Shown one piece after another: positions 1 through 57,914 of a stretch of DNA of 64,000 nucleotides. The notes beneath the pieces were generated by a model that did not search any database, had not been told where the DNA came from, and saw only the letters and a list, made by a program, of their open reading frames with translations. The translations under genes were made by a program, and so were the position numbers. How positions within the stretch are numbered: position 1 is the stretch's first letter; the number at the start of each line of letters is the position of its first letter. This DNA comes from Eledone cirrhosa (taxonomy: Eukaryota): positions 216,566,001 through 216,630,000 of the forward strand of contig OZ024741.1 in NCBI GenBank assembly GCA_964016885.1. The letters run 5' to 3'.

Positions 1-144
1 CAAAAGAAGGGGACAAATACAAATGGGGAGTTTACATACAGGTATATGAAAATAAAACTACTAATACAGCAACAAATAACAATTGTGATCCCCAATAGGG
101 GGGAGGCGTTACACAGGGGTCGTACACACCCCGAAAAAATGTAC
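1..144 (-). mobile_element. Tx1-like LINE 3' UTR fragment
   Basis: Shares 3' UTR motifs with the full copies (GTACA-U-tract-CGGGG-TGTGTAC hairpin, CCTATTGGGG, TGTAAACTCCCC, TTTGTCCCCTTCTTTTG); bounded by (TAGA)n. Confidence 0.75.
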
Positions 145-157
145 AGATAGATAGATA

Positions 158-415
158 TGTTTCTTTATTAGCCACAGGGGCACAAAAGAAGGGGACAAAT
201 ACAAAGAGGGAAGTTTACATACAATAAAAACGCGTAAAATGTTATCACAAATGCAATTGAAAAGTTAATCGATTTTCACCAATAGGGGGAGATATTTCAT
301 ATGGGTAACACATGCCGCCGAAAAAATGTGCAATCCTCATCTCCAGGAGTACGAAGAGTGAGTACTCCTTTCCTGTCTTCCTCTTTTTCCTCAACCTACA
401 GGCTGATATAGAGAG
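158..415 (-). mobile_element. Tx1-like LINE 3' end fragment (family B-type UTR)
   Basis: Near-identical to 18140-18395 and 42045-42240; ends AATAAAGAAAC then (TATC)n. Confidence 0.85.
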
Positions 416-444
416 AAAATAGATAGATAGATAGATAGATAGAT

Positions 445-3400
445 TTCTTTATTTACCATAAAGGCATAAAAAGAAGGGACAAATACAAAGAGGGAGTTTA
501 CATATAATCGAGTAAAAAGGGTGTAACATGAAAATAATCGAAAATAACCTCAAAAGGGAGGGGACGTGATGGGGGTTGCACACACCCCCGAAAAAGTGTG
601 CAATCCTTTGCCCGGGGAGCACATGGAGAAGGTGCTCCCCTCTCCTTTACTTCTTTACCTACAGGATGGTATACAGAGAAGGCCCATTTACACGAGCCAT
701 TCTCGCCACTATCACCCACCTTTCATAAAACTGCCCGTGGCCAAGCACCTCTCTCTCCATTCTTATCCTTCTTCCGAAGTGATATCGGAAGAAGTAGACC
801 AGACTATGGCCAGAGAGGAAGTTGCCTGACCTCAGACCTTTCAATCGTGTCCACCAAACAACCTCTTTCAACATGGCTATTACGCACAGAAAAACCGCCT
901 TTGCTTCCTTTGTGAAGAGGGGAGGCGGTTTGATTGTCATCACGGACTCGGCGGTCAATTTAATCGGCGCCACCCGCGACTGCAGTCGTTCGGCGTAGCC
1001 CCACAGATCAGCCACGCCCGGACATTGCACCAATGCGTGCGCAACGGTTTCTTCGTGACGCACACATCTAGGGCAAATCTTTTTTGAGGGATCCCTGCCC
1101 GGGCGCCCGTGTCTGTAGAGCCTCTCTCGAACGGGTAGAGCCCCCCGGTAGCACTGCCAGGCCAGTGACTTCTGGAAGTTGTCCATTGGTCCTGGGCCGA
1201 AAGTCCTACCGAACAGGCTGGCCAGTTCGTCTTCTTCCATGTCCAGCGACTCTCCAAGGGTGTCATCGCCCCTGCTAGCCACCAGCCCTCTATAGAATGA
1301 TGAGGTGGATTCTCCACCGATGGCCTGGCCCGCTTGCCAGAGAGCCCTGAGCGCCTGAGCACACTCAGTGTGCCAGTCTCCCAGTTTTCCGGATCTTTGC
1401 TTGACCCAGGACTGTAGCTCGGTGAGTGAGACGAGTCTCGGAAAGGCTCGTTTCACGAACAGAGTCCACACCGGTTGACCAGTGAGGAATACCTGTAGGT
1501 GCCGTAGCCTTAATGCGTGCCTACGCATCATCAACCACGGCATCCCCAGCCCTCCTTTCGAAGGTTGTTGGCAGCAGATGGATCTTCTCACCATAGGAGG
1601 ACGCTTCTTCCAAAGAAATTGGAAGAGCATGCGTTCCATGGTGGTGAGTGTTTCCTTAGGGCAAGGCACGACAGTCAGGCGGTAGTAAGTGACGGACGCT
1701 ATGTAAATGTTCGCCACCTCCGCCCGGCCTTTTAGGGACAGCTTACACTTGGCCCATTTCTGGGTTAGTGCAAACACCTTGTTCGTAACCTCGTTCCAGT
1801 TCTTTTCCACCTGGAGGTCCGGTCCAAACCAGACCCCAAGCAACTTTACCGGGCCCTCCGTCCAGTGTCCGACGACACCGTCAGGAGGCATCGGTCTGCC
1901 TCTCCACGTTCCGAGTTGCAGCCCGATGGATTTTTCCCGGTTCAGTTTCGCTCCTGACAACCTTTCGTACTCCTCCAGTAAGGTACCGATCGCCTCGATC
2001 TCCGAGTCGGTTGATACCATTACTGTTACGTCATCGGCGTAGGCCGACACCGCTTTGCTCAATCCTGGTTCCAGTGGGATACCCTGCAACAACTCCAACT
2101 TCCTCAGTAAAGGCTCGAGAGTCAATACGTACAGAAGGGAGGAGAGAGGGCACCCCTGTCGAATGGATCGTGTGATTTCGAACGGCTTCGAAAGGTAGCC
2201 GTTCACCTTGATCCCAGAACAGATGTGGTTGCTATGTAGGGCAGTGATCCAGCCTCTGAAAACAGGACCGAACCCAGCCGCCGCTAGCACCGCATCCAGG
2301 TAACCATGGTCGACCCTATCGAAGGCCTTAGACTGATCCAAGTTGATCAGGGCCCCACCGAAGCCGGGTTTGTTGCCAACCCTCTCTATGATGTATCGCA
2401 TGAGGTGGAGGTTATCGTGAATGGACCTGGATGGGATAGCACATGTCTGCGCATCTCCCACCAGGCCACCCACCACAAGCGCCAACCTCTTTGCTAACAC
2501 CTTGGCCAAAATCTTTAACTCTGTGTTTAGCAGGGTTATGGGCCGAAAATTATTTATACTATCCCCCTTGTTCTCGTCCTTCCTCACCAGCGTGACTACG
2601 CCCTTGGCTACAGAACAAGGAATTCTCCCGTTCTGCTGCCAATTGCAGTAGACTGCTTCGAGGAGTTCGGAGAAGAAGACCGGCATTGCTAAATAAAGTT
2701 CGTAAGGTATACCATCAAGACCTGGAGATTTGCGTCTGCTGCATTGGCTCAGCGCATCTCCGATCTCATCATCCGAGATTGGTCCCTCGCAGGACTCTGC
2801 CTCTTCGTTCGAGAGACGCGGCAGGCCGTCGAGGTATGGACCGAAATCCACGCCCCGGCCCGGACCCTCGCCTCCCCCGAACAATCGGGCAAAGTGCCTT
2901 TGAAAGGCCTCGCACATCTGCTTAGGCTCCCGGATCACCCGTCCATCTTCGTCTTGCAACGACCGGATGGTGGATCGATTTCCACTCTTAGCTTCTGTCA
3001 CGCGGGCCCATCCAACGGCTTTGGCCCCCTCATTACCTAGAGCACGTATTTTACTTCGAATGACGCAGCCTTCGTGCTTTGCATCGAAAAACTGGTTCAA
3101 GGCCGTCCTCGATGCCAGCACTCTGGCCACATCTTCGCTCTTGATTGCCTCTTCTAATTTACCTGTTAATTCTTTCTCGTTTCTATTCCTATCGGCAGCT
3201 AACATCTTGCTATAACTTATTGATTCTGTTCTAATCTCTCTTTTGAGAGATGCCCACCATCGGTTGTTGACGATTGCACCCGTCAACCTCTCCTTAACTA
3301 ATTTGCTAATCCGGTTTCTGTAAGTCTCTTTTGCCGGTAAAGACAAATTAAGTTTCCAGTAACCAGGACCCTGTCTATGTGTTTTCTCGAGATTGACCAC

Positions 3401-4107
3401 GCAGGTCACTAATTTGTGATCCGTGTAGCCAACCGTGCGCATTTCTGGACAGCTTAATATGTCCCTATCCTTACTTCTAACTAAGAATCTATCTAAGTAC
3501 GATCTAGATTGACCACTGTGGTTTCTCCAAGTCCAGGTAGGCACAGTTGGAAAATCTAGTCGATATCTATCGACCAAGTTAAAACGGTCGAGTAACCCCT
3601 TGAGGCTGTTACACCCCCCTCTATTAGGACATGCTCCTGCATAGTCCCAACGTGCATCCAGGATGTCATTCCAATCCCCCGCTAGAAGCAGGGAACGCGA
3701 CGTTCCCAGAAAAGTCTCCAAACGCTGGAAGAAGTCGGGCCGTTCAGCTCCGAAAGGGGAGTAGACGGCGACCAGTCTCAAGGCCGCACTTTCACTACTG
3801 CCAACGTCTAGCACCAACAAACGACCCTCCGGGTCCGAGTGCACAACCTGTACGGCAAGACCCATGTGTTTTTGCAGCAGTACGACAACCCCACCCCCAC
3901 CTCCAGGTTGACAGAGAGATGCATGCACCTCAAAGTCATCGAAGGTGGGGGCCAGCTGCCGCACGACGCTGATTCGAGTCTCACAGGTAACCATTACATT
4001 TATACTACATGACCTGAGGTCATTTAGAAGCTTTGCTTGCTTCCAAGTTGAGCCCAGGCCACGTGCATTCAAACATCCTACTCTTAACACATCCATGTGG
4101 GCGGCAA
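445..4107 (-). mobile_element. Tx1/L1-clade LINE, family A, 5'-truncated copy (ORF2 + 3' UTR)
   Basis: Intact ORF2, 3' UTR ending AATAAAGAAA, (TAGA)n on both sides; near-identical to 45131-48791. Confidence 0.93.
659..4096 (-). CDS. Tx1-like ORF2: AP endonuclease + reverse transcriptase + C-terminal CCHC (zf-RVT-like), 1145 aa, uninterrupted
   Basis: APE motifs LNARGL, CET, GDWN, SYLDRFL, TDH; linker GPGYWKLN; RT motifs KSPGLDG, FRPITLLN, LDQSKAFDRV, RQGCPLS, YADD; CPRC...ETVAHALVQC. Confidence 0.95.
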   Translation of the reverse strand: MDVLRVGCLNARGLGSTWKQAKLLNDLRSCSINVMVTCETRISVVRQLAPTFDDFEVHASLCQPGGGGGVVVLLQKHMGLAVQVVHSDPEGRLLVLDVGSSESAALRLVAVYSPFGAERPDFFQRLETFLGTSRSLLLAGDWNDILDARWDYAGACPNRGGCNSLKGLLDRFNLVDRYRLDFPTVPTWTWRNHSGQSRSYLDRFLVRSKDRDILSCPEMRTVGYTDHKLVTCVVNLEKTHRQGPGYWKLNLSLPAKETYRNRISKLVKERLTGAIVNNRWWASLKREIRTESISYSKMLAADRNRNEKELTGKLEEAIKSEDVARVLASRTALNQFFDAKHEGCVIRSKIRALGNEGAKAVGWARVTEAKSGNRSTIRSLQDEDGRVIREPKQMCEAFQRHFARLFGGGEGPGRGVDFGPYLDGLPRLSNEEAESCEGPISDDEIGDALSQCSRRKSPGLDGIPYELYLAMPVFFSELLEAVYCNWQQNGRIPCSVAKGVVTLVRKDENKGDSINNFRPITLLNTELKILAKVLAKRLALVVGGLVGDAQTCAIPSRSIHDNLHLMRYIIERVGNKPGFGGALINLDQSKAFDRVDHGYLDAVLAAAGFGPVFRGWITALHSNHICSGIKVNGYLSKPFEITRSIRQGCPLSSLLYVLTLEPLLRKLELLQGIPLEPGLSKAVSAYADDVTVMVSTDSEIEAIGTLLEEYERLSGAKLNREKSIGLQLGTWRGRPMPPDGVVGHWTEGPVKLLGVWFGPDLQVEKNWNEVTNKVFALTQKWAKCKLSLKGRAEVANIYIASVTYYRLTVVPCPKETLTTMERMLFQFLWKKRPPMVRRSICCQQPSKGGLGMPWLMMRRHALRLRHLQVFLTGQPVWTLFVKRAFPRLVSLTELQSWVKQRSGKLGDWHTECAQALRALWQAGQAIGGESTSSFYRGLVASRGDDTLGESLDMEEDELASLFGRTFGPGPMDNFQKSLAWQCYRGALPVRERLYRHGRPGRDPSKKICPRCVRHEETVAHALVQCPGVADLWGYAERLQSRVAPIKLTAESVMTIKPPPLFTKEAKAVFLCVIAMLKEVVWWTRLKGLRSGNFLSGHSLVYFFRYHFGRRIRMEREVLGHGQFYERWVIVARMARVNGPSLYTIL

Positions 4108-4108
4108 T

Positions 4109-4173
<65 letters not shown>
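4109..4173. repeat. (TAGA)n microsatellite between two stacked Tx1 copies
   Basis: Read directly. Similar arrays at 145-157, 420-444, 5156-5302, 18050-18137, 42004-42044, 42240-42273 and 42876-42940. Confidence 0.95.
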
Positions 4174-4174
<1 letters not shown>

Positions 4175-5155
4175 TGTTTCTTTTATTTGCCACTAGGGCA
4201 TCAAAAGTGGGACAAGTACAAAGGGGGGAGTTTACACAAAAAGGCGTCCTCAATAAGGAGGAGGCAATAACAAAATATAAAAATAAAATAAGATATAACA
4301 AAAAATAAAATTTTTAACAAAATCCTCAATAGAGAGGAGGCGCCTTGGGGGGGTCGCACACACCCCCGAAAAAAGTGTGCAACCCTTCTCCTCAGGAGCA
4401 CAGAGAAGGGGTGCTCCCTTGGTCTTTCATCTTCCTCACCTATAGTCTGATGTAGAGTGAAGGCCCATTCACACGGGCCATTCTCGCCACTTTCACCCAT
4501 CTTTCATAGAAACGGCTGGGGTGCAGCACCTCTCTCTCCATCCTGATCCTTCTTCCGAAATGATATCGGAAGAAACGGACCAGTTGTTGGCCAGAGAGAA
4601 AGGTGCCTGACCTCAGTCCTTTCAGACGCGTCCACCATACAACCTCTTTCGCCATGGCCATTACGCACAGAAACACCGCCTCTGCTTCATCTTTGAAGGG
4701 GGGAGGCGGCTTGATCATTACAATAGACTCGGTGGTCAACCGGATCGGTCCCACTCTTGACAGCAGTTGTTCGACATAGCCCCACAGATCGGCTACGCCC
4801 GAGCAGTGTACCAATGCGTGTGCAACGGTTTCCTCGTCGCACACGCATCTGGGACAGATCTTTTTGGCGGGGTCCCAACCCGGGCGCCCGTGTCTGTAGA
4901 GCCTTTCTCGAACGGGTAAAGCCCCTCGGTAGCACTGCCAGGCCAGGGACTTCTGGAAGTTGTCCATAGGTCCCGGGCTGAATGTCCTACCGAACAGGCT
5001 GGCCAGTTCGTCCTCCTCCATGTCTAGGGCTTCTCCGAGGGCGTCGTCGCACCTGCTGCGTACCAGCCCTCTATAGAATGTTGCGGTGGAGTCTCCACTG
5101 ATAACCGGATCCGCCTGCCAGAGGGCGGTGAGCGCCTGGGCACACTCAGTGTGCC
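4175..5155 (-). mobile_element. Tx1-like LINE 3' fragment (ORF2 C-terminus + UTR), related subfamily
   Basis: WHTECAQAL...CPRC..ETVAHALVHC...ARVNGPSLYIRL; the N-terminus of the listed ORF is microsatellite read-through. Confidence 0.9.
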
Positions 5156-5200
<45 letters not shown>

Positions 5201-5373
5201 CAAACAGACAGATAGACAGATAGACATATAAACCGATAGACATATAAACCGATAGACAAACAGACAGATAGACATATAAACCGATAGACAAACAGATAGA
5301 TAGATTCGTTCTGAAGCATTGCTCAACATAGCTGTGGTGTTAATAATTCAAATAACAAACTATATAGACAACA

Positions 5374-5610
5374 TTCTGAGTTCAAATCCCGCAGAGGTTA
5401 ACTTTGCCTTTCATCCTTACGGGGTCGATAAAATAAAATACCAGTAATGTACTGGTTAATTTGCTGGCCTTGTGCCTAAAATAGAAACAATTATTTCGCA
5501 AATCCCACCGAGGTTAACTTTGCCTTTCATCCTTACGGGGTCGATAAAATAAAGTACCAGTAATGCACTGGGTAATTGCTGGCCTTGTGCCTAAAATAGA
5601 AACAATTATT
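5374..5610 (+). mobile_element. Two tandem 5'-truncated copies of tRNA-derived SINE family 1
   Basis: GAGTTCAAATCCCG B-box, GCCTTTCATCCTTACGGGGTCGATAAAA body, GGCCTTGTGCCTAAAATAGAAACAATTATT tail. Confidence 0.85.
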
Positions 5611-5852
5611 TCGATTAGCTGTGAATAGTAACAAGATAGTTGTATAGTGGTTGTGTAGCTATTTCATCGGCTGATATTATACAAATACTTTTATCAGCCG
5701 ACCAATTTCACCGTCATCTGTCAAAGGCTACATTTTTCAGGGGAATTAAACTTCGCTGAATCGTGATAATTCCTGTCCTCAATCACATCAATGTCTGTGT
5801 CTAGGTGTCTATAAGCATATATGTATGTATCCATGTATGTATATATACATGT

Positions 5853-8780: not shown

Positions 8781-8964
8781 TGGATTAGCAGTATCGGTAG
8801 AGGGTCGGACGCCATGCTTTGACGCATAGAGTTACGGTCCTTTCTATTCTGAGTTCAAATCCCGCTGAGGTCAACTTTGCCTTTCATCCTTACGGGGTCG
8901 ATAAAATAAAGTACCAGTAATGTACTGGGTATTTCCTGGCCTTGTGCCAAAAGTAGAAACAATT
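8781..8964 (+). mobile_element. tRNA-derived SINE family 1, full length
   Basis: A-box-like TAGCAGTATCGG, B-box GAGTTCAAATCC, conserved body and tail. Confidence 0.85.
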
Positions 8965-15168: not shown

Positions 15169-15189
15169 CTATATATATATATATAAATA

Positions 15190-17453: not shown

Positions 17454-18080
17454 TATATGTATGCATGCATATATATATGTATATATGTATATATGTAACT
17501 ATGTATGTATGTTTGTATGTAACTACGTATGTATGTATATATGTGTTTGTATCTATACAGCGTATAAACCCAATTGAGAGGATATGGATGTACAGGGTGT
17601 ATATATAAAGGGATAGATATCAGCTCCCTAAAATAAAAGATATATATCATATAGACACATATGTTGTTGATTTGTGAGAGAGGTTTCTGGGTATTGAATT
17701 CCAGGGTCTTATATAATCTACCCTGAAAGGGTAGAGTGAACACAAGGACCCGCTGGGATTTGATCCTAGAAATATGAGACGAGGAAATTAGGGGTTTACA
17801 GATTCTGTTGCAGCTTCCTGTCTTCCTTTTCCTTTGGAATGGCACACACCCATATGTGTGCGTATGTGTGTGTACATCATGCATACATGCATACATACAT
17901 CATACATACGTACATACATACATACATACATACATACATACAAACATACATACATGCATGCATACATACATCATACATACATACGTACATACATACATAT
18001 AGAGGCAGATAAAGTGAGGCAGATGTATATATATTTAGAAAGAGAGAGTGATTGATAGATAGATAGATAAGCAGACAGAC

Positions 18081-18137
<57 letters not shown>

Positions 18138-18377
18138 TATTTCTTTATTAGCCACAGGGGCACAAAAGAAGGTGACAAATACAAAGGGGGAAGTTTACAT
18201 ACAATAAAAACGTGTAAAATACTATCACAAATGCAATTTAAAAATTAGTCGATTTTCCCCAATAGGGGGAGACATTTCATATGGGTAACACATACCCCCG
18301 AAAAAAAATGTGCAACCCTCATCTCCAGGAGTACGAAGAGTGAGTACCCCTTTCCTCTCTTCCTCTTTTTCCTCAAC

Positions 18378-21300
18378 CTACAGGCTGATATAGAGCGAAG
18401 GCCCATTCACTCAGGCCTTTCTCGCCACTTTCACCCACCTTTCATAAAACTTGCTGGGGTACAGCGCCTCTCTCCATCCTGATTCTTATTCTAACTTTAG
18501 AATATATTTGAAGGTATTTGAAAAAAAGAATCAGTTGTTGGCCGGAGAGAAAGGTGTCTGACATCAGCCCTTTTAACCTTGTCCACCATACAGCCTCTTT
18601 CGCCATAGCTATCACACAAAGGAAATTCGCCTCTCCTTCGTTTTTGAAGGAGGGTGGCGGTTTGATCATGACAATGGACTCGGTGGTCAACCGGATTGGT
18701 CCCACCCGCGACAATAGTCGTTCTACATAGCCCCACACGTCGGTGACGCCCGGGCAGTGTATGAATGCGTGCGCGACGGTTTCTTCGTCTCGCACGCACC
18801 TCGGGCATATCATTTTTGCAGGGTCCCCTCCCGGGCGCCCATGTTGTAGAGCTTGTCTCGAACTGGTAGAGCTCCTCGGTAGCACTGCCAGGCCAAGGAC
18901 TTTTGGAAGATGTCCATCGGTCCCGGGCGGAAGGTCCTACCGAACAGACTGGCCGGTTCGTCTTCCTCTACGCCTAAAGTTTCACCGAGCGCGTCGTCGC
19001 ACTTGCTGCGGATCAACCCTCTATAGAATGACGAAGTGGAGTCTCCACTGATCGCCGGGTCCGCCTGCCAGAGGGCTGTGAGCACCTGAGCACATTCGAT
19101 GTGCCAGTCGCCCATTTTTCTCGGTCTTAGCTTGACCCAGGACTGCAGCTCGGTCAGCGAGACGAGTCGTGGGAAGGCTCGCCTCACGAACGGGGCCCAC
19201 ACCGGTTGTCCGGTGAGGAATACGTAGAGATGCCGCAGCCTGAGCGCGTGTTTGCGAATCGTCAGCCACGGCATCCCCAGCCCTCCGTTGGAAGGGTGTT
19301 GGCAGCAGATGGATCTTCTCACCAAAGGAGCCCGCCTCTTCAAAGGAATTGGAAGAGCGCGCGCTCCATTTTGGCGAGCGTTTTGGCTGGACAAGGCACG
19401 ACGGTCAAGCGGTAGTAGATGGCGGACGCTATAAAAGTGTTCGCCACCTCCGCTCGACCTTTCAGGGATAGTTTTAACTCGGCCCACTTCTGGGTGAGTG
19501 CAAACACCTTGGCCGACACCTCGTTCCAGTTTTTCTCCACCTGGAGGTCCGGACCAAACCAGACCCCGAGCAGCTTTACCGGTCCTTCCGTCCAGCGTCC
19601 GACGACGCCATCGGAAGGCATCGGTTTGCCTCTCCACGATCCGAGTTGCAAACCGATGGACTTGTCCCGGTTCAGCTTCGCTCCTGTGAACCTTTCGTAT
19701 TCCTTCAGTAAGGTACCGACTTCTTCGATGTGCGAGGCGCTCAACACCATTACTGTCACGTCGTCGTCATAGGCCGACGCCGCTTTCCGCAGTCCCGGTT
19801 CCAGAAGGATGCCCTGTAATAGCTCCAACTTCCGCAGTAGTGGATCGAGAGTCAGTACGTACAGAAGGGAGGAGAGAGAGCATCCCTGTCGAATGGATCG
19901 CGTGATATGGAACGGCTCCGAGAGGTAGCCGTTCACCTTGACCCTTGAGCAGATGTTGCTGTTGTGCATTGCAGTAATCCAGCCCCTGAACACGGGTCCG
20001 AAGCCTGCCGCCTCGAGCACCGCATCCAGGTAACGATGGTCAACCCTATCGAAAGCCTTAGACTGATCGAAGTTGATCAGGGCCCCACCGAAGCCGGGTT
20101 TACACCCTACCCTCTCTATGATGTATCGCATGAGGTGGAGGTTGTCGTGTATGAACCTGGTCGGGATTGCGCTTCTCCCACCAGGTTCTCGACGACAAGC
20201 GCCAGCCTCATTGCCAAAACCTTGGCCAAAATCTGTAACTCTGTGTTTAGCAGAGTTATGGGCCGGAAGTTGCCTATGTCATCCCCCTTATTCTCGTCCT
20301 TCCTGACTAGTGTGACTACGCCCCCGGTCACAGAACTGGGAATTCTCCGTTCTGTTGCCAGTTGCAGTAGACCGCTTCCAGGAAACCGGAGAATAAGTCC
20401 AGCATTGCTATGTAAAATTCGTAGGGTAGACCGTCGAGACCTGGAGATTTGCGTTTGCCGCATTGGCTCAGCGTGTCCCCTATCTCAGCGGCTGAGGTCG
20501 ACCTTTCACAGAACTTTACCTCGCTGTCCGAGAGTCGCGGTAGGACGCCGAGGTATGGACCGAAATCCATAGCCCCTCCCGGCGCGCCGCCCTGCCCGAA
20601 CAGTTGAGCAAAGTGCCGCTGAAAGGCCGCACACATCTGCTTCGGCTCACGTATCACGCGTCCGTTTTGGTCCTTCAAAGCCCGAATCGTGGAGATGTTG
20701 CCACTTTTTGCCTCCATCACTCGGGCCCAGCTAACAGCTTTGGCTCGCTCGTTTCCCAGAGCACGTATTTTGCTTCTGACAACGCAGCCCTCGTGCTTTG
20801 CGTCGAAGAACTGGTCCAAGGCCGTTCTCGTTGCTAGCACGCTAGCTACGTTGCCACTTCTAATTGCCTCTTCTACTTTATCTACCAGTTCCTTCTCGGT
20901 TCTATTTCTAATTCTTTACTAAAAACTATCGAGTCTAATCTAACTGCCCTCTTGAGAGAGTACTATCATCTGTTGTTGACAATGGCCCCTGTCAAGTGCT
21001 GTTTAACTAAAGTGCTAATCCGTCTACTGTAGGCTTTGCATGTCGGTAACGACAAGTTCAGCTTCCAGTGGACGGTCCTTGTCTATGGGTTCTATCAAAG
21101 TTGACCATGCAGGTCACTAGTTTGTGATTTGAATAGGCAACCATGAACATTTGTGGACAGCTTAACATGTCCCTATCCTTATTTCTAACTAGAACCTTAT
21201 CTAGGTACGATCTAGATGTTCCGCTGAGATTAGTCCACGTCCACAGTGGCACAGTCGGAAAATCTAGTCGATATCTATCGGCCAGGTCAAATCGGCCGAT

Positions 21301-21794
21301 TAACTGTTACACCCCCCTTTATCGGGACATGCTCCCACATAGTCCCAACGTGCATCTAGGAATCCATTCCAGTCCCCCACTAAAAGCAAGGAGCGGGGCG
21401 TTCCCAGAAAAGTCTCTAGACGTTTGAAGAAGTCTGGCCGCGGTGTCCCGGATGGGGCATATGCGGCCACCAGCCTGAAGGCTCTACCTTCACTACTGTC
21501 AACGTCTAGGACCACCTGTCGACCCTCCTGGTCCAGATGTACCGTCTGTGTTACGAGGCCCAGGTGTTTCCGCAGCAAAACAGCAACCCCGCTCCTACCC
21601 CCCGGCCGACAGAGAGATGCGTAGATCTCAAAGTCATCGAAGATGGAGGCCAGCTGTCGCTCGCTGTGGATCCTGGACTCGCAAATGGCTACTACATCCT
21701 TAGTGTGCGACCTGAGGTCGTTTAAGAGTTTGCCCTGTTTCTAGGGCATCCCCAGGCTGCGTAGATTCACACATCCAACTCTTATATTGGCCAT
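18378..21794 (-). pseudogene. Family B ORF2 (APE-RT), multiple frameshifts
   Basis: Pieces GDWN, SYLDKVL, KSPGLDG, FDQSKAFDRV, YDDD (mutated YADD), CPRC in changing frames. Confidence 0.9.
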
Positions 21795-21828
21795 GTTGGT
21801 TCTGAAAAGTTAAAAGAGAAGAAAACAC

Positions 21829-23380
21829 TCACCTCTTCGTCTCCCGGGGATCAGGCCGCACGGTTTCCATGGGGGTGTTAGACGGGTTGTCTGGGTGGGT
21901 GGTGGTTTCCGGCGGGGTGGGGACGGAGATGTTTGGTGGGGTGGGGGTGTATGGGGTGAGGGTGGGGAAATATTTTAAAAGGACGCGGTTAATGGGTTTA
22001 ACACAAGGATTACCCACGTCCTTAGGAAAGTTTTCCTTTAAAGACTTATAGGTGTCCGTAGGGACCCTAATCATCTTTAAATTAGGTTTGTCTACACAGT
22101 TCGAAAAAGTTTTCCCTTCGGTTTTCACCGAAGGGTCGTTGGAGATGACCTCCATTAAAGTTTTGTTTTTACTGTTTATGTATGTGTAATGTTCTTGTGG
22201 TTTTTGTCTGTTGTTCTTGTGGGAGCTTTCGTTTTGTTGTAGGTGTTTGTGTTTGGAGTGATGTCGTGGTTTTGTTTTCGGGACGGGGGTTTTTTGTTTG
22301 TAATGTTTGTGTTGTTTGTGTTGGTGGTTATATGTTTGTAGTGATGTTTGTTGTTTTTTTGTTCTTGTGGTGTCTTTTCTTCTTTCTTTTTCGAACGGAG
22401 AGGCTCTCCCTCATGGTGGTGTTGGTGGTGGTGGTGGTGGTTGTGTTGTTGTTTTGGGTGTTGGCAGTAGTGCCTCTTTATTTTTGTAGTTAACTGAGGA
22501 CAGTAAGCCTTCAGGTGACCACTGCTTAAACAGTGGTAACATGAAGGCCGCCTACCCTCAACAGAAATGTTTATTTATGAAATTCCATCCAGAGGCACAC
22601 GTTGGGGTATTTTAGCTATCCGTTCTGGCCTCATTTGGACCAGAACTTCCATGCTTGTAACATTGAATGTGCCTCTGGAGGACTTTCCCACCGAAATGAT
22701 GGTGTCTTCGTCGAAATCGCTGAAGCCAGTTAGAATCCACCAGACGTTTACATTTGGTGCAATGTTCAACATTTTTATTTTTTGTGTTCTTTTTCCCATA
22801 CATGTGGGGGAAAAGGTGTAAAGGGGGGACACAATCAACGATACAGAATATTTTTGTGCTGTCAATTGGTCTCTCAACAACACCGAAATGCTTCCAAAAA
22901 GTTTCCCTTTTTGGATGAAGGCAATATCCTTCATGGAATTCTTCACATCAGGTCAATATCGTTTTGGGATAACTGAACTGGTTTTTTCGACACATTTGAA
23001 ACCGTCTTAAAAATTACTGTTTTTAGAACAGTTTCTCTGCATAACTGTTGAGGAGAAGTGATGCTGAAAGCACCACTCTCACCAAAAGTTACGTATTGTT
23101 TTGCATCGCTTAACATTTCCCTAGCATTGGAAATGTCAAGGTATCTGAACAGTTCCGTCTTTTGGACGGTTTGAGCAAAGGAAATCTTTTCCTTGTTCGT
23201 GGAGTTGTTCGTGTTGCTGTTGTTGTTGGTGGTGTTGTTGTTATCATTGTTGCTGTTGTTGTTCTTGTTGTCATTATTGTTGTTGTTGTTGTTGTTGTTG
23301 TTGTTCTGGTTGGTGTTGTTTATATTTTGCATGTTATTGGTATTTGTGTTAGTGTTGATGTTACAATCAACGTCCGACAT
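21829..23380 (-). pseudogene. Family B ORF1 (CCHC knuckle), disrupted
   Basis: KISFAQ, KTVIFKTV, VQMRPERIAKIP, GRRPSCYHCLSSGHLKAYC and VKPINRVLLK align with family A ORF1. Confidence 0.85.
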
Positions 23381-23415
23381 CGTGTTTTCAAAACTGACGA
23401 CAGTTTCGATGTCTT

Positions 23416-23986
23416 GCCACAAGGTCGCACAAGAAAAGGGGAGAATACAAAGACATGCCGTGGATTTTACATACAGTCGTGTAAAAAATATAAAAACAAA
23501 CAATTACAACAATCGAAATCCCCAATAGTGGGGAAGCGCCACAAATGGGTTGTTTAATACCCCGTCAATAGAACAACCCTCAACTCCAGGAGCGTGTTGT
23601 GCAAGTGCTCCTTTCTTCCTTTTGCTCTCTTCTTCAACCTACAGGCTTATAAACAGAGAAGGCCCAATCACTCGGGCCATTTTCGCTTCATTCACCCACC
23701 TTTCAGTAAATTTACTGGGGTGCAGTGCCTCCCTCTCCACTCTGATTCGCCTTCTAAAGTGATACTTAAAGAAGGAAATCAATTGTTGTCCGGAGAGAAA
23801 GGCATATGTCCTCAGTCCTCTCAATCTCGTCCACCATATAACTTCTTTCACCATAGCCACCGTACAGAGGAAAACCGCCTCTCTTTCGTTTTTGAAAGAG
23901 GCTGGCGGTTTGATCCTTACTATGGACTCGGCAGTCAACTGGATTTGTCCCATACGCAAAAGCAGTTTTTCTGCATAGTTCCATAA
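23416..23986 (-). mobile_element. Tx1-like 3' fragment fused directly upstream of the family B copy
   Basis: LWNYAEKLL...ARVIGPSLFISL plus a 3' UTR ending TGTGGCAA, with no microsatellite spacer. Confidence 0.85.
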
Positions 23987-24565
23987 GCCTTGTTTCGCAT
24001 TTTTTTATGCTTATCAAGGCTAACTACTCCCTCCTGTCTACTGAGATCTCTGATGTTTCAAAAAATGCGAAACAAGGCCTTGTCGGCTTTATCTCCCCTT
24101 GTTTGCTGAGATTAAAGTAAGTGAGTTTGTCACTACTCTGAAACAATAGCATACGGTCTTCAAAATGCTTTTAATTAAGCATAAAGTGTATTGCAAAATA
24201 CATTATATATACATTCATATATATATTGCTATTTCAGAGCTCCAATTCTAATTTTTAATTTCTGCCTGACAGGCAACCGCTCTGTATAATCAGTTCCTGA
24301 TTATTTACTAGAATTCTATAAGAATATAACATCAGTGATCTCAGTAGACAGGAGGGAGTAGTTAGCCTTGATAAGCATAAAAAAATGCGAAACAAGGCCT
24401 TGTCGACTTTATCTCCCCTTGTTTGCTGAGATTAAAGTAAGTTAGTTTGTCACTACTCTAAAACAATAGCATACGGTCTTCAAAATGCTTTTAATTAAGC
24501 ATAAAGTGTATTGCAAAATACATTATATATACATTCATATATATATTGCTATTTCAGAGCTCCAA

Positions 24566-24572: not shown

Positions 24573-24599
<27 letters not shown>

Positions 24600-24608
<9 letters not shown>

Positions 24609-38000: not shown

Positions 38001-38001
38001 A

Positions 38002-42003: not shown

Positions 42004-42044
<41 letters not shown>

Positions 42045-42240
42045 GTACTCCTGGAGATGAGGGTTGCACATTTTTTCGGGGGTATGTGTTACCCATATAA
42101 ACTGTCTCCCTCTATTGGGGAAAATCGACTAACTTTTTAAATTCCATTTGTGATAACATTTTACACGTTTTTATTGTATGTAAACTTCCCCCTTTGTATT
42201 TGTCCCCTTCTTTTGTGCCCCTGTGGCTAATAAAGAAACA
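42045..42240 (+). mobile_element. Tx1-like 3' UTR fragment (family B-type)
   Basis: Matches the reverse complement of 158-352 and 18140-18335; (TATC)n on both sides. Confidence 0.85.
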
Positions 42241-42273
42241 TATCTATCTATCTATCTATCTATTTATCTATCT

Positions 42274-42873
42274 CTGTGGAATTATGTCGAACAGCTACTG
42301 ACACGTGTGGGACGCATCCAGTTGTCAGCCGAGTCCATCGTGAGGATCACTTCGCCGCCTTCATTTAAGAATGAAGAGAGGCGGTTTTCCTCTGTTTGGT
42401 GGCTATGGCGAAAGAGGTAATATGGTGGACGAGGTTAAAAGGACTGAGGGCAAACACCTTTCTTCCCGGACAACAACTCATTCCCTTCTTTAAGTACCAC
42501 TTTAGAAGAAAGGGGAGAGTGGAGAGGGAGGTGCTACACTCCAGTAAATTCGCTGAAAGGTGGGTGAATGTGGCGAAAATGGCCCGAGTGAATGGGCCTT
42601 CTCTGTATATAAACTTGTAGGTTGAGGAAGATAAACAGAGGAAAGACGGGAACACCTACAAAACGTGTTCCTGGTGTTGAGAGTTGTTCTATCCACGGGA
42701 TGTAAAACAACCCTGCAGTATTGTTCACCCCTATTGGGGATTTCAATTGTTATTTTATTTTTATAGTTTATTGTTATTTATTAATGTTAAAGTTATATGA
42801 TTTTTATGTAAAACCCCCGCCGTCACGTCTTGTAATGTCATATTTTTGTACGCCCCTAAGGCAAATAAAGAAA
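42274..42873 (+). mobile_element. Tx1-like 3' fragment (ORF2 tail + UTR)
   Basis: LWNYVEQLL...KEVIWWTRLKGL...ARVNGPSLYINL, then UTR and (TATC)n. Confidence 0.88.
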
Positions 42874-42893
42874 GATATCTATTTATCTATCTG

Positions 42894-42934
<41 letters not shown>

Positions 42935-43202
42935 ATATCTAGTAATCTATCTATCTAAATTAGCTAACATAATCTAGCTGTCGTCTGTTCTACAGTGTGG
43001 ATGTCATTCACTTCGCACAGAAGTTTTGTTCAAATTTATTGAGGAAATTTTGTGAGTTCAAACTTAATTTTGATACAATTGTGTAGCTTGACCCTCCGTC
43101 TGAACTGTCAGGCGGTGGGTCAGCTCATCTTTACCCCTCCTAGAGGTGAAAAACCTGTTTTAAAAAAAATTTTGTGTAAAAAATTTCAATCGTCTAACAG
43201 AA

Positions 43203-45107
43203 ATGTTAAACGCAGCGAACGAAAATAGTGGTGGGGGGACAGCGGTAAGAGTTGTAAGCTCGCACGCTTTAGTCCTCCCTTCCTTCCCAACTAACGTCAT
43301 AGAGAAGGAAGGAAAAATGAAAATAAAAACGGACGAATCTGCGGAGAAAAAATTAAATGACGAAAACAACGAAAAAAAATTAAATGACGAAAACAACGAA
43401 AAAAAAAAATTTGAAAAATTGCATGACAATACTAATAACACAAACAAAGACACAACAAACAAAAAAATAACAGTTGAAAATAACATCATATCAGAAAACA
43501 AAGCAGACTACAGGATTTCATTTGCACAGAAAACAAAGAAATCTTTGACTTATATAGCGGAAAACATTTCAGATGTGGTACGAAGGATCACGGACGCAAA
43601 ACAATACATAAGTGAAGGTGAGAATGGTATTTTATTGGTAAAAATGCCTCAAGAATTCACGAAAGACATTGAAAGCCGAACGGTCAAGTTTCGGACCATC
43701 AACAACAGTACAAAAAAACCTGAACAGCCTTCTCAAGCAGATATCAAAACAGTACTCGCAGAAGTACTGAATGAAACAACTTTCATAAGAAAAGACAGAC
43801 TGTATGGAAGCCTAGCAATTATCATGAAGAACGAATCGGCGGCAAAAAAATGTGCTTTGTCACCGATTCGTTCGAAAAATTTCACCTTTTATCCATCTTA
43901 TATGGGAAAAAAAACTCAACGCATATGGCTGGATGCAATGATGCCAGATGTGGACTACTGCTGGCTCATAGCTGGCTTCATCGATCCAGTGAATGACAAC
44001 GTGATTTCCATTGGGAAAACCACAGGCAATGCGTTCAGTGGAACAGGTATAGAGCTGGTAGTACAAATGAAGCCTGAACGCATCGCCCAAATACCCGACA
44101 GAATCCTATTAGAGGACCACGGGTATATAAACATTAGCGTGGAGGGGAGAAGGCCGTCCTGCCATATCTGTGCAGGCAGAGGGCACCTGAAGGCCGCTTG
44201 TCCCCAACTCAACAAAAAGAAAACCCTGCTACCAACACCAGCTCCACCACCACCACCACAACAGATAAACAAACAACAAAACTCAGTCCCACCCAACCCG
44301 TCCCTCAGTAACACCACAACACCACCACAACACAAACAGTCACAACACATTACCCCAAAACAAAATACAGGCCCACCCAACCTCTCACTCAATAAAACAA
44401 CACAACCACCGCAGACACAACACACAACACAGTCTAACATAGTGACATCCATCTCCCCCACAAAGAAAACCAACACGGAAACATTACCAGCAAACATACC
44501 TCTTCCCTCCAACACTGAAGATAACCCAACGAATTCGGAGGAAGAAACGGAGTCCTTCAGACAGATTAAAAGGAAAAAAAGAAAACATGTGCAAAACACA
44601 CAAGGACAAACAACCCCCACCCAAATCGCAACACAATCTAACAAAACAGAAAACACCCCTCCAGCAACAAACAAAACCAAACCTGCCCCTCCCCTCTTCG
44701 AAACACTCACACCATCGGAAAAAAAGACATTACACTATACTTACATCAACAGAAACAATAATAAATTAAATGAACTCATATACAATAATCCTTCGGTACA
44801 AACCGAAGGTGTAAACTTTGTTTCATCAGAAAACCACCCACATTTAAAACTAATAAAAATCCCAATGAACCTCTACCAAAAACTAAAAAAGGATTTTAAG
44901 GAGGACGTAGGACCACCCTCTGTCAAACCCATAAACCGCGTCCTACTAAAAAGCTTTCCCCCTCCCCTTCCCCTCCCCAACACAACTCCAAACACCCCAA
45001 CCCCACCACACACCGACGACCCCACACCACCACAAGACACCCCTTCACCCAACACCCCCGACCCCATGGAAGTCGTGCAACCCGAACCCCGGGAAGCGGA
45101 AAGGTAG
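43203..45107 (+). CDS. Tx1-like ORF1, 634 aa, with CCHC zinc knuckle and Pro/Thr-rich linker
   Basis: Uninterrupted ORF upstream of ORF2; CHICAGRGHLKAAC; homologous pieces in families B and C. Start codon uncertain. Confidence 0.88.
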   Translation: MLNAANENSGGGTAVRVVSSHALVLPSFPTNVIEKEGKMKIKTDESAEKKLNDENNEKKLNDENNEKKKFEKLHDNTNNTNKDTTNKKITVENNIISENKADYRISFAQKTKKSLTYIAENISDVVRRITDAKQYISEGENGILLVKMPQEFTKDIESRTVKFRTINNSTKKPEQPSQADIKTVLAEVLNETTFIRKDRLYGSLAIIMKNESAAKKCALSPIRSKNFTFYPSYMGKKTQRIWLDAMMPDVDYCWLIAGFIDPVNDNVISIGKTTGNAFSGTGIELVVQMKPERIAQIPDRILLEDHGYINISVEGRRPSCHICAGRGHLKAACPQLNKKKTLLPTPAPPPPPQQINKQQNSVPPNPSLSNTTTPPQHKQSQHITPKQNTGPPNLSLNKTTQPPQTQHTTQSNIVTSISPTKKTNTETLPANIPLPSNTEDNPTNSEEETESFRQIKRKKRKHVQNTQGQTTPTQIATQSNKTENTPPATNKTKPAPPLFETLTPSEKKTLHYTYINRNNNKLNELIYNNPSVQTEGVNFVSSENHPHLKLIKIPMNLYQKLKKDFKEDVGPPSVKPINRVLLKSFPPPLPLPNTTPNTPTPPHTDDPTPPQDTPSPNTPDPMEVVQPEPREAER

Positions 45108-45140
45108 GTCTCTACACTCTCCTTTGGCTCTGCCGCCCAC

Positions 45141-48100
45141 ATGGATGTGTTAAGAGTAGGATGTTTGAATGCACGTGGCCTGGGCTCAACTTGGAAGCAA
45201 GCAAAGCTTCTAAATGACCTCAGGTCATGTAGTATAAATGTAATGGTTATCTGTGAGACTCGAATCAGCGTCATGCGGCAGCTGGCCCCCACCTTCGATG
45301 ACTTTGAGGTGCATGCATCTCTCTGTCAACCTGGAGGTGGGGGTGGGGTTGTCGTGCTGCTGCAAAAACACCTGGGTCTTGCCGTACAGGTTGTGCACTC
45401 GGACCCGGAGGGTCGTTTGTTGGTGCTAGACGTTGGCAGTAGTGAAAGTGCGGCCTTGAGACTGGTCGCCGTCTACTCCCCTTTCGTTGCTGAACGGCCC
45501 GACTTCTTCCAGCGTTTGGAGACTTTTCTGGGAACGTCGCATTCCCTGCTTCTAGCGGGGGATTGGAATGACATCCTAGATGCACGTTGGGACTATGCAG
45601 GAGCATGTCCTAATAGAGGGGGGTGTAACAGCCTCAAGGGGTTACTCGACCGTTTTAACTTGGTCGATAGATATCGACTAGATTTTCCAACTGTGCCTAC
45701 CTGGACTTGGAGAAACCACAGTGGTCAATCTAGATCGTACTTAGATAGATTCTTAGTTAGAAGTAAGGATAGGGACATATTAAGCTGTCCAGAAATGCGC
45801 ACGGTTGGCTACACGGATCACAAATTAGTGACCTGCGTGGTCAATCTCGAGAAAACACATAGACAGGGTCCCGGTTACTGGAAACTTAATTTGTCTTTAC
45901 CGGCAAAAGAGACTTACAGAAACCGGATTAGCAGATTAGTTAAGGAGAGGTTGACGGGTGCAATCGTCAACAACCGATGGTGGGCATCTCTCAAAAGAGA
46001 GATTAGAACAGAATCAATAAGTTATAGCAAGATGTTAGCTGCCAATAGGAATAGAAACGAGAAAGAATTAACAGGTAAATTAGAAGAGGCAATCAAGAGC
46101 GAAGATGTGGCCAGAGTGCTGGCATCGAGGACGGCCTTGAACCAGTTTTTCGATGCAAAGCATGAAGGCTGCGTCATTCGATGTAAAATACGTGCTCTAG
46201 GTAATGAGGGGGCCAAAGCCGTTGGATGGGCCCGCGTGACAGAAGCTAAAAGTGGAAATCGATCCACCATCCGGTCGTTGCAAGACGAAGATGGACGAGT
46301 GATCCGGGAGCCTAAGCAGATGTGCGAGGCCTTTCAAAAGCACTTTGCCCGATTGTTCGGGGGAGGCGAGGGTCCGGGCCGGGGCGTGGATTTCGGTCCA
46401 TACCTCGACGGCCTGCCGCGTCTCTCGAGCAAAGAGGCAGAGTCCTGCGAGGGACCAATCTCGGCTGATGAGATCGGAGATGCGCTGAGCCAATGCAGCA
46501 GACGCAAATCTCCAGGTCTCGATGGTATACCTTACGAACTTTATTTAGCAATGCCGGTCTTCTTCTCCGAACTCCTCGAAGCGGTCTAGTGCAATTGGCA
46601 GCAGAACGGGAGAATTCCTTGTTCTGTAGCCAAGGGCGTAGTCACGCTGGTGAGGAAGGACGAGAAAAAGGGGGATAGTATAAATAATTTTCGGCCCATA
46701 ACCCTGCTAAACACAGAGTTAAAGATTTTGGCCAAGGTGTTAGCAAAGAGGTTGGCGCTTGTCGTGGGTGGCCTGGTGGGAGATGCGCAGACATGTGCTA
46801 TCCCATCCAGGTCCATTCACGATAACCTCCACCTCATGCGATACATCATAGAGAGGGTTGGCAACAAACCCGGCTTCGGTGGGGCCCTGATCAACTTGGA
46901 TCAGTCTAAGGCCTTCGATAGGGTCGACCATGGTTACCTGGATGCGGTGCTAGCGGCGGCTGGGTTCGGTCCTGTTTTCAGAGGCTGGATCACTGCCCTA
47001 CATAGCAACCACATCTGTTCTAGGATCAAGGTGAACGGCTACCTTTCGAAGCCGTTCGAAATCACACGATCCATTCGACAGGGGTGCCCTCTCTCCTCCC
47101 TTCTGTACGTATTGACTCTCGAGCCTTTACTGAGGAAGTTGGAGTTGTTGCAGGGTATCCCCCTGGAACCAGGATTGAGCAAAGCAGTGTCGGCCTACGC
47201 CGATGACGTAACAGTAATGGTATCAACCGACTCGGAGATCGAGGCGATCGGTACCTTACTGGAGGAGTACGAAAGGTTGTCAGGAGCGAAACTGAACCGG
47301 GAAAAATCCATCGGGCTGCAACTCGGAACGTGGAGAGGCAAACCGATGCCTCCTGACGGTGTCGTCGGACACTGGACGGAGGGCCCGGTAAAGTTGCTTG
47401 GGGTCTGGTTTGGACCGGACCTCCAGGTGGAAAAGAACTGGAACGAGGTTACGAACAAGGTGTTTGCACTAACCCAGAAATGGGCCAAGTGTAAGCTGTC
47501 CCTAAAAGGCCGGGCGGAGGTGGCGAACATTTACATAGCGTCCGTCACTTACTACCGCCTGACTGTCGTGCCTTGCCCTAAGGAAACACTCACCACCATG
47601 GAACGCATGCTCTTCCAATTTCTTTGGAAGAAGCGTCCTCCTATGGTGAGAAGATCCATCTGCTGCCAACAACCTTCGAAAGGAGGGCTGGGGATGCCGT
47701 GGTTGATGATGCGTAGGCACGCATTAAGGCTACGGCACCTACAGGTATTCCTCACTGGTCAACCGGTGTGGGCTCCGTTCGTGAAACGAGCCTTTCCGAG
47801 ACTCGTCTCACTCACCGAGCTACAGTCCTGGGTCAAGCAAAGATCCGGAAAACTGGGAGACTGGCACACTGAGTGTGCTCAGGCGCTCAGGGCTCTCTGG
47901 CAAGCGGGCCGGACCATCGGTGGAGAATCCACCTCATCATTCTATAGAGGGCTGGTGGCTAGCAGGGGCGATGACACCCTTGGAGAGTCGCTGGACATGG
48001 AAGAAGACGAACTGGCCAGCCTGTTCGGTAGGACTTTCGGCCCAGGACCAATGGACAACTTCCAGAAGTCACTGGCCTGGCAGTGCTACCGAGGGGCTCT

Positions 48101-48578
48101 ACCCGTTCGAGAGAGGCTCTACAGACACGGGCGCCCGGGCAGGGATCCCTCAAAAAAGATTTGCCCTAGATGCGTGCGTCACGAAGAAACCGTAGCGCAC
48201 GCATTGGTGCAATGTCCGGGCGTGGCTGATCTGTGGGGCTACGCCGAACAACTGCTGTCGCGGGTGGCGCCGATTAAATTGACCGCCGAGTCCGTGATGA
48301 CAATCAAACCGCCTCCCCTCTTCACAAAGGAAGCAAAGGCGGTTTTTCTGTGCGTAATAGCCATGTTGAAAGAGGTTGTTTGGTGGACACGATTGAAAGG
48401 TCTGAGGTCAGGCAACTTCCTCTCTGGCCATAGTCTGGTCTACTTCTTCCGATATCACTTCGGAAGAAGGATAAGAATGGAGAGAGAGGTGCTTGGCCAC
48501 GGGCAGTTTTATGAAAGGTGGGTGATAGTGGCGAGAATGGCTCGTGTAAATGGGCCTTCTCTGTATACCATCCTGTAG
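45141..48578 (+). pseudogene. Family A ORF2 with a single nonsense codon (TAC>TAG at 46587-46589)
   Basis: Collinear with the intact 659-4096 ORF, about 20 aa differences by eye, same frame across the stop. Confidence 0.92.
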
Positions 48579-48819
48579 GTAAAGAAGTAAAGGAGAGGGG
48601 AGCACCTTCTCCATGTGCTCCCCGGGCAAAGGATTGCACACTTTTTCGGGGGTGTGTGCAACCCCCATCACGTCCCCTCCCTTTTGAGGTTATTTTCGAT
48701 TATTTTCATGTTACACCCTTTTTACTCGATTATATGTAAACTCCCCCTTTGTATTTGTCCCTTCTTTTTATGCCTTTATGGTAAATAAAGAAATCTATCT
48801 ATCTAAGTTAGCTAAATTT

Positions 48820-51030: not shown

Positions 51031-51430
51031 TTATATATATATATATATATATATATTGTCCACTACATGTCTCTTTTTTTTATGTTTCATTTTTGTTTAC
51101 TCTGTTTGAAACTCTTAGACTCCTTAACTGTCGATCACTTCTTCCGCCTTATTGTTCTTGTTCTATTCATGTTGTGTACTAAAACTATCCTTTAATAACA
51201 TTATGTTACGTCCCGAATATTAACCAATCATATTTCAGAAACTACAAACAAGATGACTGAGATGTTTTTTTTTTTGTGTGCAGGGGTAGTTTTTCTTTCG
51301 TTGGACAATGAAGTTATGACAAACCAGATGATTTGGCTAGGTTTTGAACTATATTGTAAATAACAATAATAATAACAATTATTATTATTGGCCAATAAAG
51401 AAATCATTATTATTATTATTATTATTATTT

Positions 51431-51609: not shown

Positions 51610-51889
51610 TAATAATAATAATAATGCTTTCTTTATTGGCCACAAGGGCTGACACGAAGAAAAACATTAGGGACGGCACAGAACAGTACAGGACGATACA
51701 AAGTGGGTTTTGGTCGAGTAAACAGGTTATAACAAAATCGGGCTAGAAATCCAAAAAATTTCAAACAACAAAAATTAACCAAAAAGGGGGAAGCCTCCGA
51801 GGGTCACTCGTGGTGAAAACCTCACAAAAGATCACGGCCACCCTGACCATCAGGGCAAGCGCCCTCTCTCACTTTTCCCACTCCTCAGT

Positions 51890-54800: not shown

Positions 54801-55230
54801 CGTTCCAGTCGCCCACCAACACTACAGAGCGGGACGTTCCAACAATGGTCTCTAGACGTCTGAAGAAAGATGGCCGTCCTGCCCCTGTTGGGGCGTAGAC
54901 GGCTACTAGCCTGAAAGCATTGCCTTCGCTGCCGGTCACGTCCAGCACCACCGACTTACCTTCTGAGTCCAGGAAAATGGCCCGTATGGCGAGATCCAAG
55001 CCTCTCCGAAAAAGCACGGCAACCCCTCCCCCCGATCCTCGACGGCTGGGAGATGCGTATACATCGTAGCCGCCGAAGATCGGTGCGAAGGATCGTGCTT
55101 CGGAGACTCTGGTCTCGCTGATGGCCACCACATCTATGTTTAGTGACCTGAGGTCGTTGATCAGGTGACCCTGCTTCCAAGATGACTCCAGGCCACGTAC
55201 ATTTATACTGCCTATTCTAAGTACGGCCAT
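51890..55230 (-). pseudogene. Family C ORF2 (APE-RT), frameshifts and deletion around YADD
   Basis: INVRGL, SET, GDWN, SYLDRV, TDH, GPGYWKLN, LDQSKAFDRV, KEIVWWTRLKGL. Confidence 0.9.
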
Positions 55231-55261
55231 GTTGGATGAGAAACGGGGCAAGTGAGAAAGG

Positions 55262-57167: not shown

Positions 57168-57507
57168 ATTGTTTGTGGTGGTGTCTGTTGTATGAATTTC
57201 ACTAACACTCCTCTCAACTTTTACGCCGTTGTCACACGAAAGCAGACATATTGCTGTGTGTGTGGAGGGGGCTGTTCAGTCATTCTTTTTTGTTTTTTTT
57301 TCAAAAGGAAATTGTTCAAATATTGTTCAAATAATTGGGCCAAAAGGCCCAAATATTATACTTTCCCCTTCACAGGGCAAAGTCTAAGGGCTTATATCCC
57401 TTACACAACAAGAAATATTTAACAACAAATAATTTTAACTGGCAAATAAAGCGACTTACTGGGAGCGAGCAAAAAAGTTGTCCAAACAAACCACTAATAA
57501 TAATAAT

Positions 57508-57873
57508 GTTTTCTTTATTGGTCACAAGGGCTAACATAAAGAAAAACATTACAGACGGCACAGAATGGTAGAGGACGATACAAAATGGGTTTTGGTCGTG
57601 TAAAAAGGTTATAACAAGACAGAAACGTGTAAAAACAAATTTAAAAAATTTCAAACCACAAAAATTAGCCAAAAAGGGGGAAGCCTCCGAGGGTCACTCG
57701 TGACGAAAACCACACAAAAGACCACGATCACCCTGACCACCAGGGCAAGCGCCCTCTCCCAGTTTTCCCACTCCTCAGACTACAGGTGCATACTCGGACC
57801 AGACTCGCCACTTTCAACCACCTTTCAACAAACTTACTAGAAGACAGCACTTGCCTCTCCACCCTGATTTTCC
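57508..57873 (-). mobile_element. Family C 3' fragment stacked upstream of the full copy
   Basis: RKIRVERQVLSSSKFVERW plus a UTR similar to 51626-52005; (TAA)n on both sides. Confidence 0.88.

Positions 57874-57914
<41 letters not shown>

Follow-up and report, generated by a model that had tools for sequence, protein, structure and literature searches.

Several families of non-LTR (non-long terminal repeat) retrotransposons insert into microsatellites. Among long interspersed nuclear elements (LINEs) of the Tx1 clade, the published accounts cited here describe teleost Kibi in (TC)n, teleost Koshi in (TTC)n and crocodilian families in (TTCC)n or (TTTC)n (PMC4494074, PMC3812793). The microsatellite targets given there for non-LTR elements at large are ACAY, AC, TC, TTC and TAA (PMC3812793), with TG for Togen (PMC4640811). 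A Tx1 family is regarded as target-specific when >20% of its genomic copies lie next to one sequence type (PMC4494074), and the choice of microsatellites by the apurinic/apyrimidinic-like endonuclease (APE) has been described as poorly understood (PMC3812793). In Octopus vulgaris, 421 insertions have been reported for 13 L1-Tx1 families that were active recently (PMC13282606, PMC8967140). Here we describe 64 kb of the genome of the octopod Eledone cirrhosa (contig OZ024741.1, positions 216,566,001 to 216,630,000; the window), in which LINE copies, likely of the Tx1 clade, lie in one orientation within (TCTA)n/(GATA)n repeats. We consider it likely that these microsatellites were chosen as targets. 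The association itself is real, and sequence signatures support it well.

The window has a GC content of 41% and is dense in AT, AC, AG, ACAT and AGAT microsatellites. We sorted its LINE copies by 3′-region identity into subfamilies A, B, C, D and F and a D-like piece, D2, found with TCTA repeats, and a sister family E, found with (ATT)n (Table 1). Junctions were counted over the nine TCTA-group pieces in the window, which was itself chosen for showing the pattern. All seven intact 3′ ends among these pieces enter (ATCT)n on the sense strand, and 5′ junctions follow (TCTA)n in 7/9. When random window positions were asked for at least 10 bp of (ATCT)n starting within 4 nt, the background chance was 0.0026 per site, or 1.8e-8 for three separate loci. 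Poly(A) was absent from all ten 3′ ends in the window (seven of the TCTA group and three of family E). An initial annotation of this DNA had described every complete 3′ end as identical and as running straight into the repeat, without poly(A) and always on the same strand. The fixed strand and the lack of poly(A) held for all seven ends. The terminus was less uniform, since AATAAAGAAA closes six of the seven and the end at 4175 reads AATAAAAGAAA; only the two B-type ends abut the repeat directly, a CAT, TAT or GAT linker intervening in the other five. Truncated 5′ ends were probably joined on 1-4 bases matching the repeat.

Array 1 consists of four LINE pieces (F, A, B and C) in a single orientation, with TAGA runs between them and capping the array. 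This arrangement, reported in the initial annotation, was confirmed at 1-5155, and so was the like pattern it had noted at 18050-18140 (18050-18137 here) and 42004-48815. Because the 3′ regions of the array 1 pieces are mutually 60-74% identical, they represent four subfamilies. Across the window, identity between subfamilies in the 3′ region is 59-75%, and A copies are 93-96% identical to each other; the two B copies are 100% identical in the 3′ region, with 38 mismatches in 3,662 bp overall. The order of the subfamily pieces differs from array to array. Neighbours are thus different subfamilies in varying order and therefore represent separate insertions. No element lies upstream of the repeat at 5156-5305.

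The only full-length TCTA-group copy in the window, the B element of array 3, is flanked by a 23-bp target-site duplication. In the non-repeat part of this duplication 9/10 bases match, for which the chance, computed from local base frequencies, is 9e-5. Since the duplication spans both repeat and non-repeat flank, the three repeat units after the B 3′ end predate the insertion. The element has an ORF1 (open reading frame 1) frame of 647 codons (43164-45104) with one CCHC knuckle, and an ORF2 (45141-48578) with a single in-frame stop at 46587-46589. We rejected the sequence from 48806 onward as the 5′ end of a second element: only 10 bp match the full-length start, and no other match was present in the window.

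Family E ends in AATAAAGAAA at 51394-51402, 51629-51637 and 57511-57519, and each of these ends enters (ATT)n, none TCTA. The duplication around its full-length member includes four non-repeat bases (chance 0.005), so that both full-length elements are bounded by duplications reaching non-repeat DNA. The spacer of the E array is exactly the duplicated block, the truncated E piece abutting the left duplication copy. The endonucleases of the GATA and AAT families are ~53% identical across the first 526 aa of ORF2. As family E shares its 3′ end with the TCTA families yet uses (ATT)n, the target has changed within this octopod lineage. The earlier proposal of a GATA-specific lineage is upheld as to targeting, which is supported by the duplication of 23-24 bp and the outer 5′ repeats, but is too narrow for a lineage with a sister family in (ATT)n. 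What family E targets within 51390-57917 is the (TAA)n tract that closes a dispersed repeat of ~185 bp.

LINEs of the Tx1 clade have two ORFs, the first with an RNA-binding region and a CCHC knuckle. The B copy of array 1 has a fully open ORF2 (4096-662, 1,145 aa) with APE, reverse transcriptase (RT) and zf-RVT domains; Pfam placed Exo_endo_phos at residues 23-227, RVT_1 at 512-755 and zf-RVT at 976-1032 (26.9 bits, slightly below the 27.5 cut-off). The truncation of this copy falls just 5′ of the ORF2 start codon (4096-4108), leaving ORF2 open. The best relative of solved structure was human L1 ORF2p (E 4e-50), and alignment to it showed the catalytic APE residues and the YADD motif to be intact in the open ORF2 (P0001). 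A CX2CX4HX4C knuckle is present in ORF1 of B, A and E; Atlas neighbours of ORF1 were zf-CCHC/ZCCHC3-like (0.90-0.92), and a Pfam scan of ORF1 gave no match. The elements also display the features of the L1 group, namely an N-terminal APE, an RT and a C-terminal cysteine motif, with 5′ truncation, a conserved 3′ end and target-site duplication.

The nearest named ORF2 relative came from Argonauta hians (68% across the RT region). In a quick IQ-TREE maximum likelihood RT tree of 58 rows, with SH-aLRT (Shimodaira-Hasegawa-like approximate likelihood ratio test) support only and without vertebrate L1, Xenopus Tx1L, Keno or Mutsu rows, A and B paired (99) apart from E. A/B, E, an NCBI protein and the Argonauta protein were joined (100), followed by a group of ENA proteins of 50-54% RT identity (100). 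These sister-clade proteins (P0102-P0107, P0122, P0137) lie on long contigs and in clusters of up to 732 members. This whole clade, ENA group included, shared one branch (99) with fish TX1-labelled and turtle proteins, away from plant L1-type rows. It formed a separate clade (100) and was not nested in the fish TX1/Kibi-Koshi-type branch, RT identity to the fish group being 35-38%. The 99 branch includes the pol-like proteins BAC82605, BAC82606 and BAC82609, which we take to be Kibi/Koshi deposits. Domain order, the CCHC-knuckle ORF1 and this tree, within its set of rows, all support the Tx1 affinity suggested initially, and we regard membership of the Tx1 clade as likely. A metagenome scan for relatives yielded 80 loci, all distant (23-42% identity in the best segment), and none of the 80 had a TCTA flank as judged by TRF (Tandem Repeats Finder). 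In one distant LINE (L007:4150-4230, 27% identity), an apparent 3′ end AATAAAAA leads directly into (GT)n.

Independent reads came from four public runs aligned to 42920-49125 at 88%; the joints listed were 15 of 215, and the loose ends listed 24 of 1,919. The listed joints included three loops inside the repeat, six internal skips, probably diverged subfamilies, and two cases of longer TCTA after the 3′ end. In two more TCTA was joined to the element interior (47505 and 48742; a further table adds 46871 and 47550), and in the last two the 3′ end with TCTA was joined back to the interior at 47489 and 48059, forming head-to-tail stacks. Both kinds of joint came from contigs (X2) and from restriction-site-associated DNA (RAD) sequencing of a different sample (X16). 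None of these joints matches a junction within the window. Most rest on RAD data from a single further sample, with 1-2 read starts, so they demonstrate presence and not frequency. Near-identical pieces occurred under two further species labels (X5, X7).

From these junctions we infer the following course of insertion. The APE would nick the GATA (purine-rich) strand, probably at the T/A step AGAT/AGAT, and that of family E at the T/A step AAT/AAT, both positions holding to within ±1-2 nt. Reverse transcription would be primed at the AATAAAGAAA end of the element through a few paired bases, without templated poly(A). A second nick ~17-24 bp downstream, whatever the sequence, would duplicate the target, and 5′ truncations would be closed where 1-4 nt match the repeat. 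The duplicated units would regrow by slippage, targets would persist on both sides of each copy, and later subfamilies could then stack head-to-tail. Human pedigrees give GATA repeats a mutation rate of ~2e-3 to 4e-3 per generation (PMC3812793). Because few units are duplicated per event and GATA repeats are this mutable, both sides would stay available to later subfamilies. The idea first proposed, that insertions recreate their own target, is implied by the duplications and agrees with the E array. A single long repeat that was already present and was hit several times would, however, explain the GATA arrays equally well.

The repeat could instead be a 3′ tail made by the element through RT slippage on a short terminal unit, as occurs in some CR1, L2 and Rex1 LINEs, with arrays forming as later copies insert into the tails of earlier ones. 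Such an origin would suit the fixed strand, the lack of poly(A) at every 3′ end, the private repeat unit of each family behind a common AATAAAGAAA end, and the location of 90% of perfect TCTA bases next to elements. We favour targeting because in the B duplication the 3′ repeat recurs at the 5′ side along with 10 bp that are not repeat, as happens in the E duplication with its own flank, and because outer 5′ repeats occur where no element lies upstream. Copies that settle in older tails would have to prefer the repeat to begin with, and we judge a pure tail unlikely. More doubtful still is an endonuclease with no specificity, the association arising from loose T/A-step insertion in AT-rich DNA combined with pairing between DNA and an RNA whose 3′ end is target-like, or with survival of harmless insertions. 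Both proposed nick sites fall on T/A steps, as do those of human L1 (PMC1950540), the hairpin loop of the B APE has nine residues as in L1 and not the 11 of Tx1L, and the 3′ linkers are target-like. However, AT, AC and AG repeats take up tenfold more of the window (3,885 bp against 398 bp) but hold no 3′ end, and survival alone does not produce a strand bias. Arrays that owe nothing to separate insertions, and were built instead by tandem duplication, unequal recombination, 3′ transduction or mis-assembly, appear highly improbable: the region is repeat-rich and cluster 2 contains a deletion-type fusion at ~23430, yet adjacent pieces are 59-75% identical in an order that differs per array, the two B copies differ at 38 positions, and independent reads contain other head-to-tail joints. 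Tandem duplication as the array origin was rejected on the subfamily divergence of adjacent pieces.

Several observations nonetheless count against targeting. Twelve of the 15 perfect TCTA runs of at least 10 bp in the window adjoin elements (366 of 408 bp), which would also fit a repeat made or lengthened by the element. Among the duplications of TCTA families a single one extends into non-repeat DNA, the rest lying wholly in repeat, where target and tail look alike, and two of nine 5′ junctions have no repeat. To judge by the conserved CAT/GAT linkers, target-like bases may already be present in the RNA. Several of the joints in reads rest on 1-2 starts, and at 88% stringency they could be misplaced. 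An empty orthologous site was absent among the 15 of 215 joints listed, and the 24 of 1,919 loose ends listed include none at the 3′ junction, so that neither presence nor absence of empty sites follows. A mixed form, in which targeting is accompanied by a few element-added units, may apply and is counted here as targeting. A broader proposal is tentative, and we hold it to be possible rather than probable: an octopod Tx1 radiation, apart from Kibi/Koshi, would have split by microsatellite target (GATA versus AAT) behind a common 3′ end, with duplication followed by regrowth acting as a net source of GATA repeats and feeding its own mixed-subfamily stacks.

Both repeat-less 5′ junctions (~23430 and 23988) belong to cluster 2, the site of the visible deletion-type fusion. 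Its A copy retains remnants of ORF1 (23188-22482) and ORF2 (21794-18381). Adjoining the D2 5′ junction, 24000-24570 and 24603-24750 hold a direct duplicate of ~140 bp accompanied by a 70-bp piece in inverted orientation, and the stretch after the duplicate is presumably Helentron/HINE-like. The DNA at 24000-24750 may be the cause of the lost repeat flank. Elsewhere, a SINE-like (short interspersed nuclear element-like) dispersed repeat of ~185 bp gave 16 BLAST matches in the window, one a tandem dimer (for example 51426-51612, 5372-5613, 8781-8959, 26406-26584, 58050-58227 and 62521-63126). From their motifs, we take the ORF at 14526-15269 (-) to resemble the 3′ portion of a reverse transcriptase gene from an RTE-type LINE, and 35827-38224 (-) and 30096-30620 (+) to be Penelope-like fragments with RT and GIY-YIG-type motifs.

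Table 1. LINE pieces, repeat runs and duplications in the window (UTR, untranslated region).
Group	Positions	Strand	Feature
Array 1	1..144	-	3′ UTR piece, subfamily F; final bases lost at window edge
Array 1	145..157	-	(TCTA)3 spacer, perfect run
Array 1	158..418	-	5′-truncated piece, subfamily A; 93-94% to remaining A copies
Array 1	419..444	-	(TCTA)6 spacer, perfect run
Array 1	445..4108	-	Subfamily B copy, cut ~10 nt upstream of ORF2 ATG
Array 1	4109..4174	-	(TCTA)16 spacer, perfect run
Array 1	4175..5155	-	5′-truncated piece, subfamily C; ~81% to B; terminus AATAAAAGAAACAT
Array 1	5156..5305	-	Outer 5′ flank: (TCTA)11, perfect 5156-5200, then degenerate TCTG/TCTA to 5305
Cluster 2	18050..18137	-	(TCTA)n 3′ flank
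Cluster 2	18138..23430 (approximate end)	-	Near full-length subfamily A copy, frameshifted/decayed; 5′ junction without repeat
Cluster 2	23425..23988	-	3′ piece D2, final ~10 nt absent; fused to A copy; 5′ junction non-repeat
Array 3	42004..42044	+	Outer 5′ flank: (CTAT)10; nothing of an element upstream
Array 3	42045..42240	+	3′ UTR piece, subfamily A
Array 3	42241..42272	+	(TATC)n spacer
Array 3	42273..42875	+	5′-truncated piece, subfamily D
Array 3	42876..42944	+	(TCTA)n spacer, edges degenerate
Array 3	42945..42967	+	Left copy of 23-bp target-site duplication: 13 bp repeat, then 10 bp non-repeat
Array 3	42968..48792	+	Full-length subfamily B element
Array 3	48793..48815	+	Right copy of 23-bp duplication; 1 mismatch to left copy
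Family E	51390..51405	+	16-bp 3′ stub within (ATT)n
Family E	51626..57490	-	Full-length decayed element in (ATT)n; ~68% DNA identity to B in ORF2
Family E	57491-57507 and 51606-51622		17-bp duplication of full-length E; last 4 bases non-repeat
Family E	57508..57874	-	5′-truncated piece, stacked directly upstream of full-length E
Family E	57875-57917		(ATT)n beyond truncated piece

Our literature search, with Repbase, Dfam and subscription journals outside its range (such a family may already be recorded there), found neither a GATA/TCTA-targeting LINE nor targets of cephalopod Tx1 elements. The octopus L1-Tx1 families likely belong to the same superfamily as the present elements, and the reports on them contain no target analysis, the word "target" being absent from PMC13282606 and occurring once, in an unrelated sense, in PMC8967140. 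If targeting is correct, the range of Tx1 LINEs that target microsatellites would reach beyond vertebrates to cephalopods. APE target choice becomes testable with two closely related families that differ in target and of which one has an open ORF2, and the GATA and AAT endonucleases would then be a natural pair for mapping its determinants. GATA repeats are common genetic markers, and insertions of this kind could explain failed or odd octopod marker loci.

The microsatellite-targeting elements Waldo, Mino, Dong and Togen belong to R1, R4 and NeSL-related clades. They resemble the octopod elements in their use of microsatellites (ACAY, AC, TAA and TG, respectively), the TAA of Dong being the target of family E, but they are of other clades, and the accounts cited give a GATA target for none of them (PMC3812793, PMC4640811). 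If our interpretation holds, GATA, and AAT for an APE-type element, are added to the list of targets. Xenopus Tx1L makes target-site duplications of ~23 bp. Like the octopod elements it is a sequence-specific APE-type LINE, but its target is a DNA transposon and not a microsatellite, and its hairpin loop has 11 residues against nine in B (PMC1950540). SINEU-3/Tx1-Mar and Utopia-1_NVit are described, like the octopod arrays, as sequential tandem insertions around a target-site duplication; their targets are Mariner elements or U2 genes, whereas the octopod spacer is a regrowable microsatellite and the stacks mix subfamilies (PMC4494074, PMC4640811). Closest are Kibi, Koshi and the crocodilian Tx1 families, which are likewise APE- and RT-bearing LINEs in one specific microsatellite, with fish TX1 proteins on the common 99 branch. 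In contrast to the pure pyrimidine (TC)n and (TTC)n of Kibi and Koshi, the octopod elements occupy (TCTA)n/GATA and (ATT)n. They also differ in forming a separate clade (100), only 28-30% identical over ~890 aa, in their mollusc host and in a shorter ORF2 (1,145 aa). With a different target and a separate branch, the octopod elements work like Kibi and Koshi but are not members of that group.

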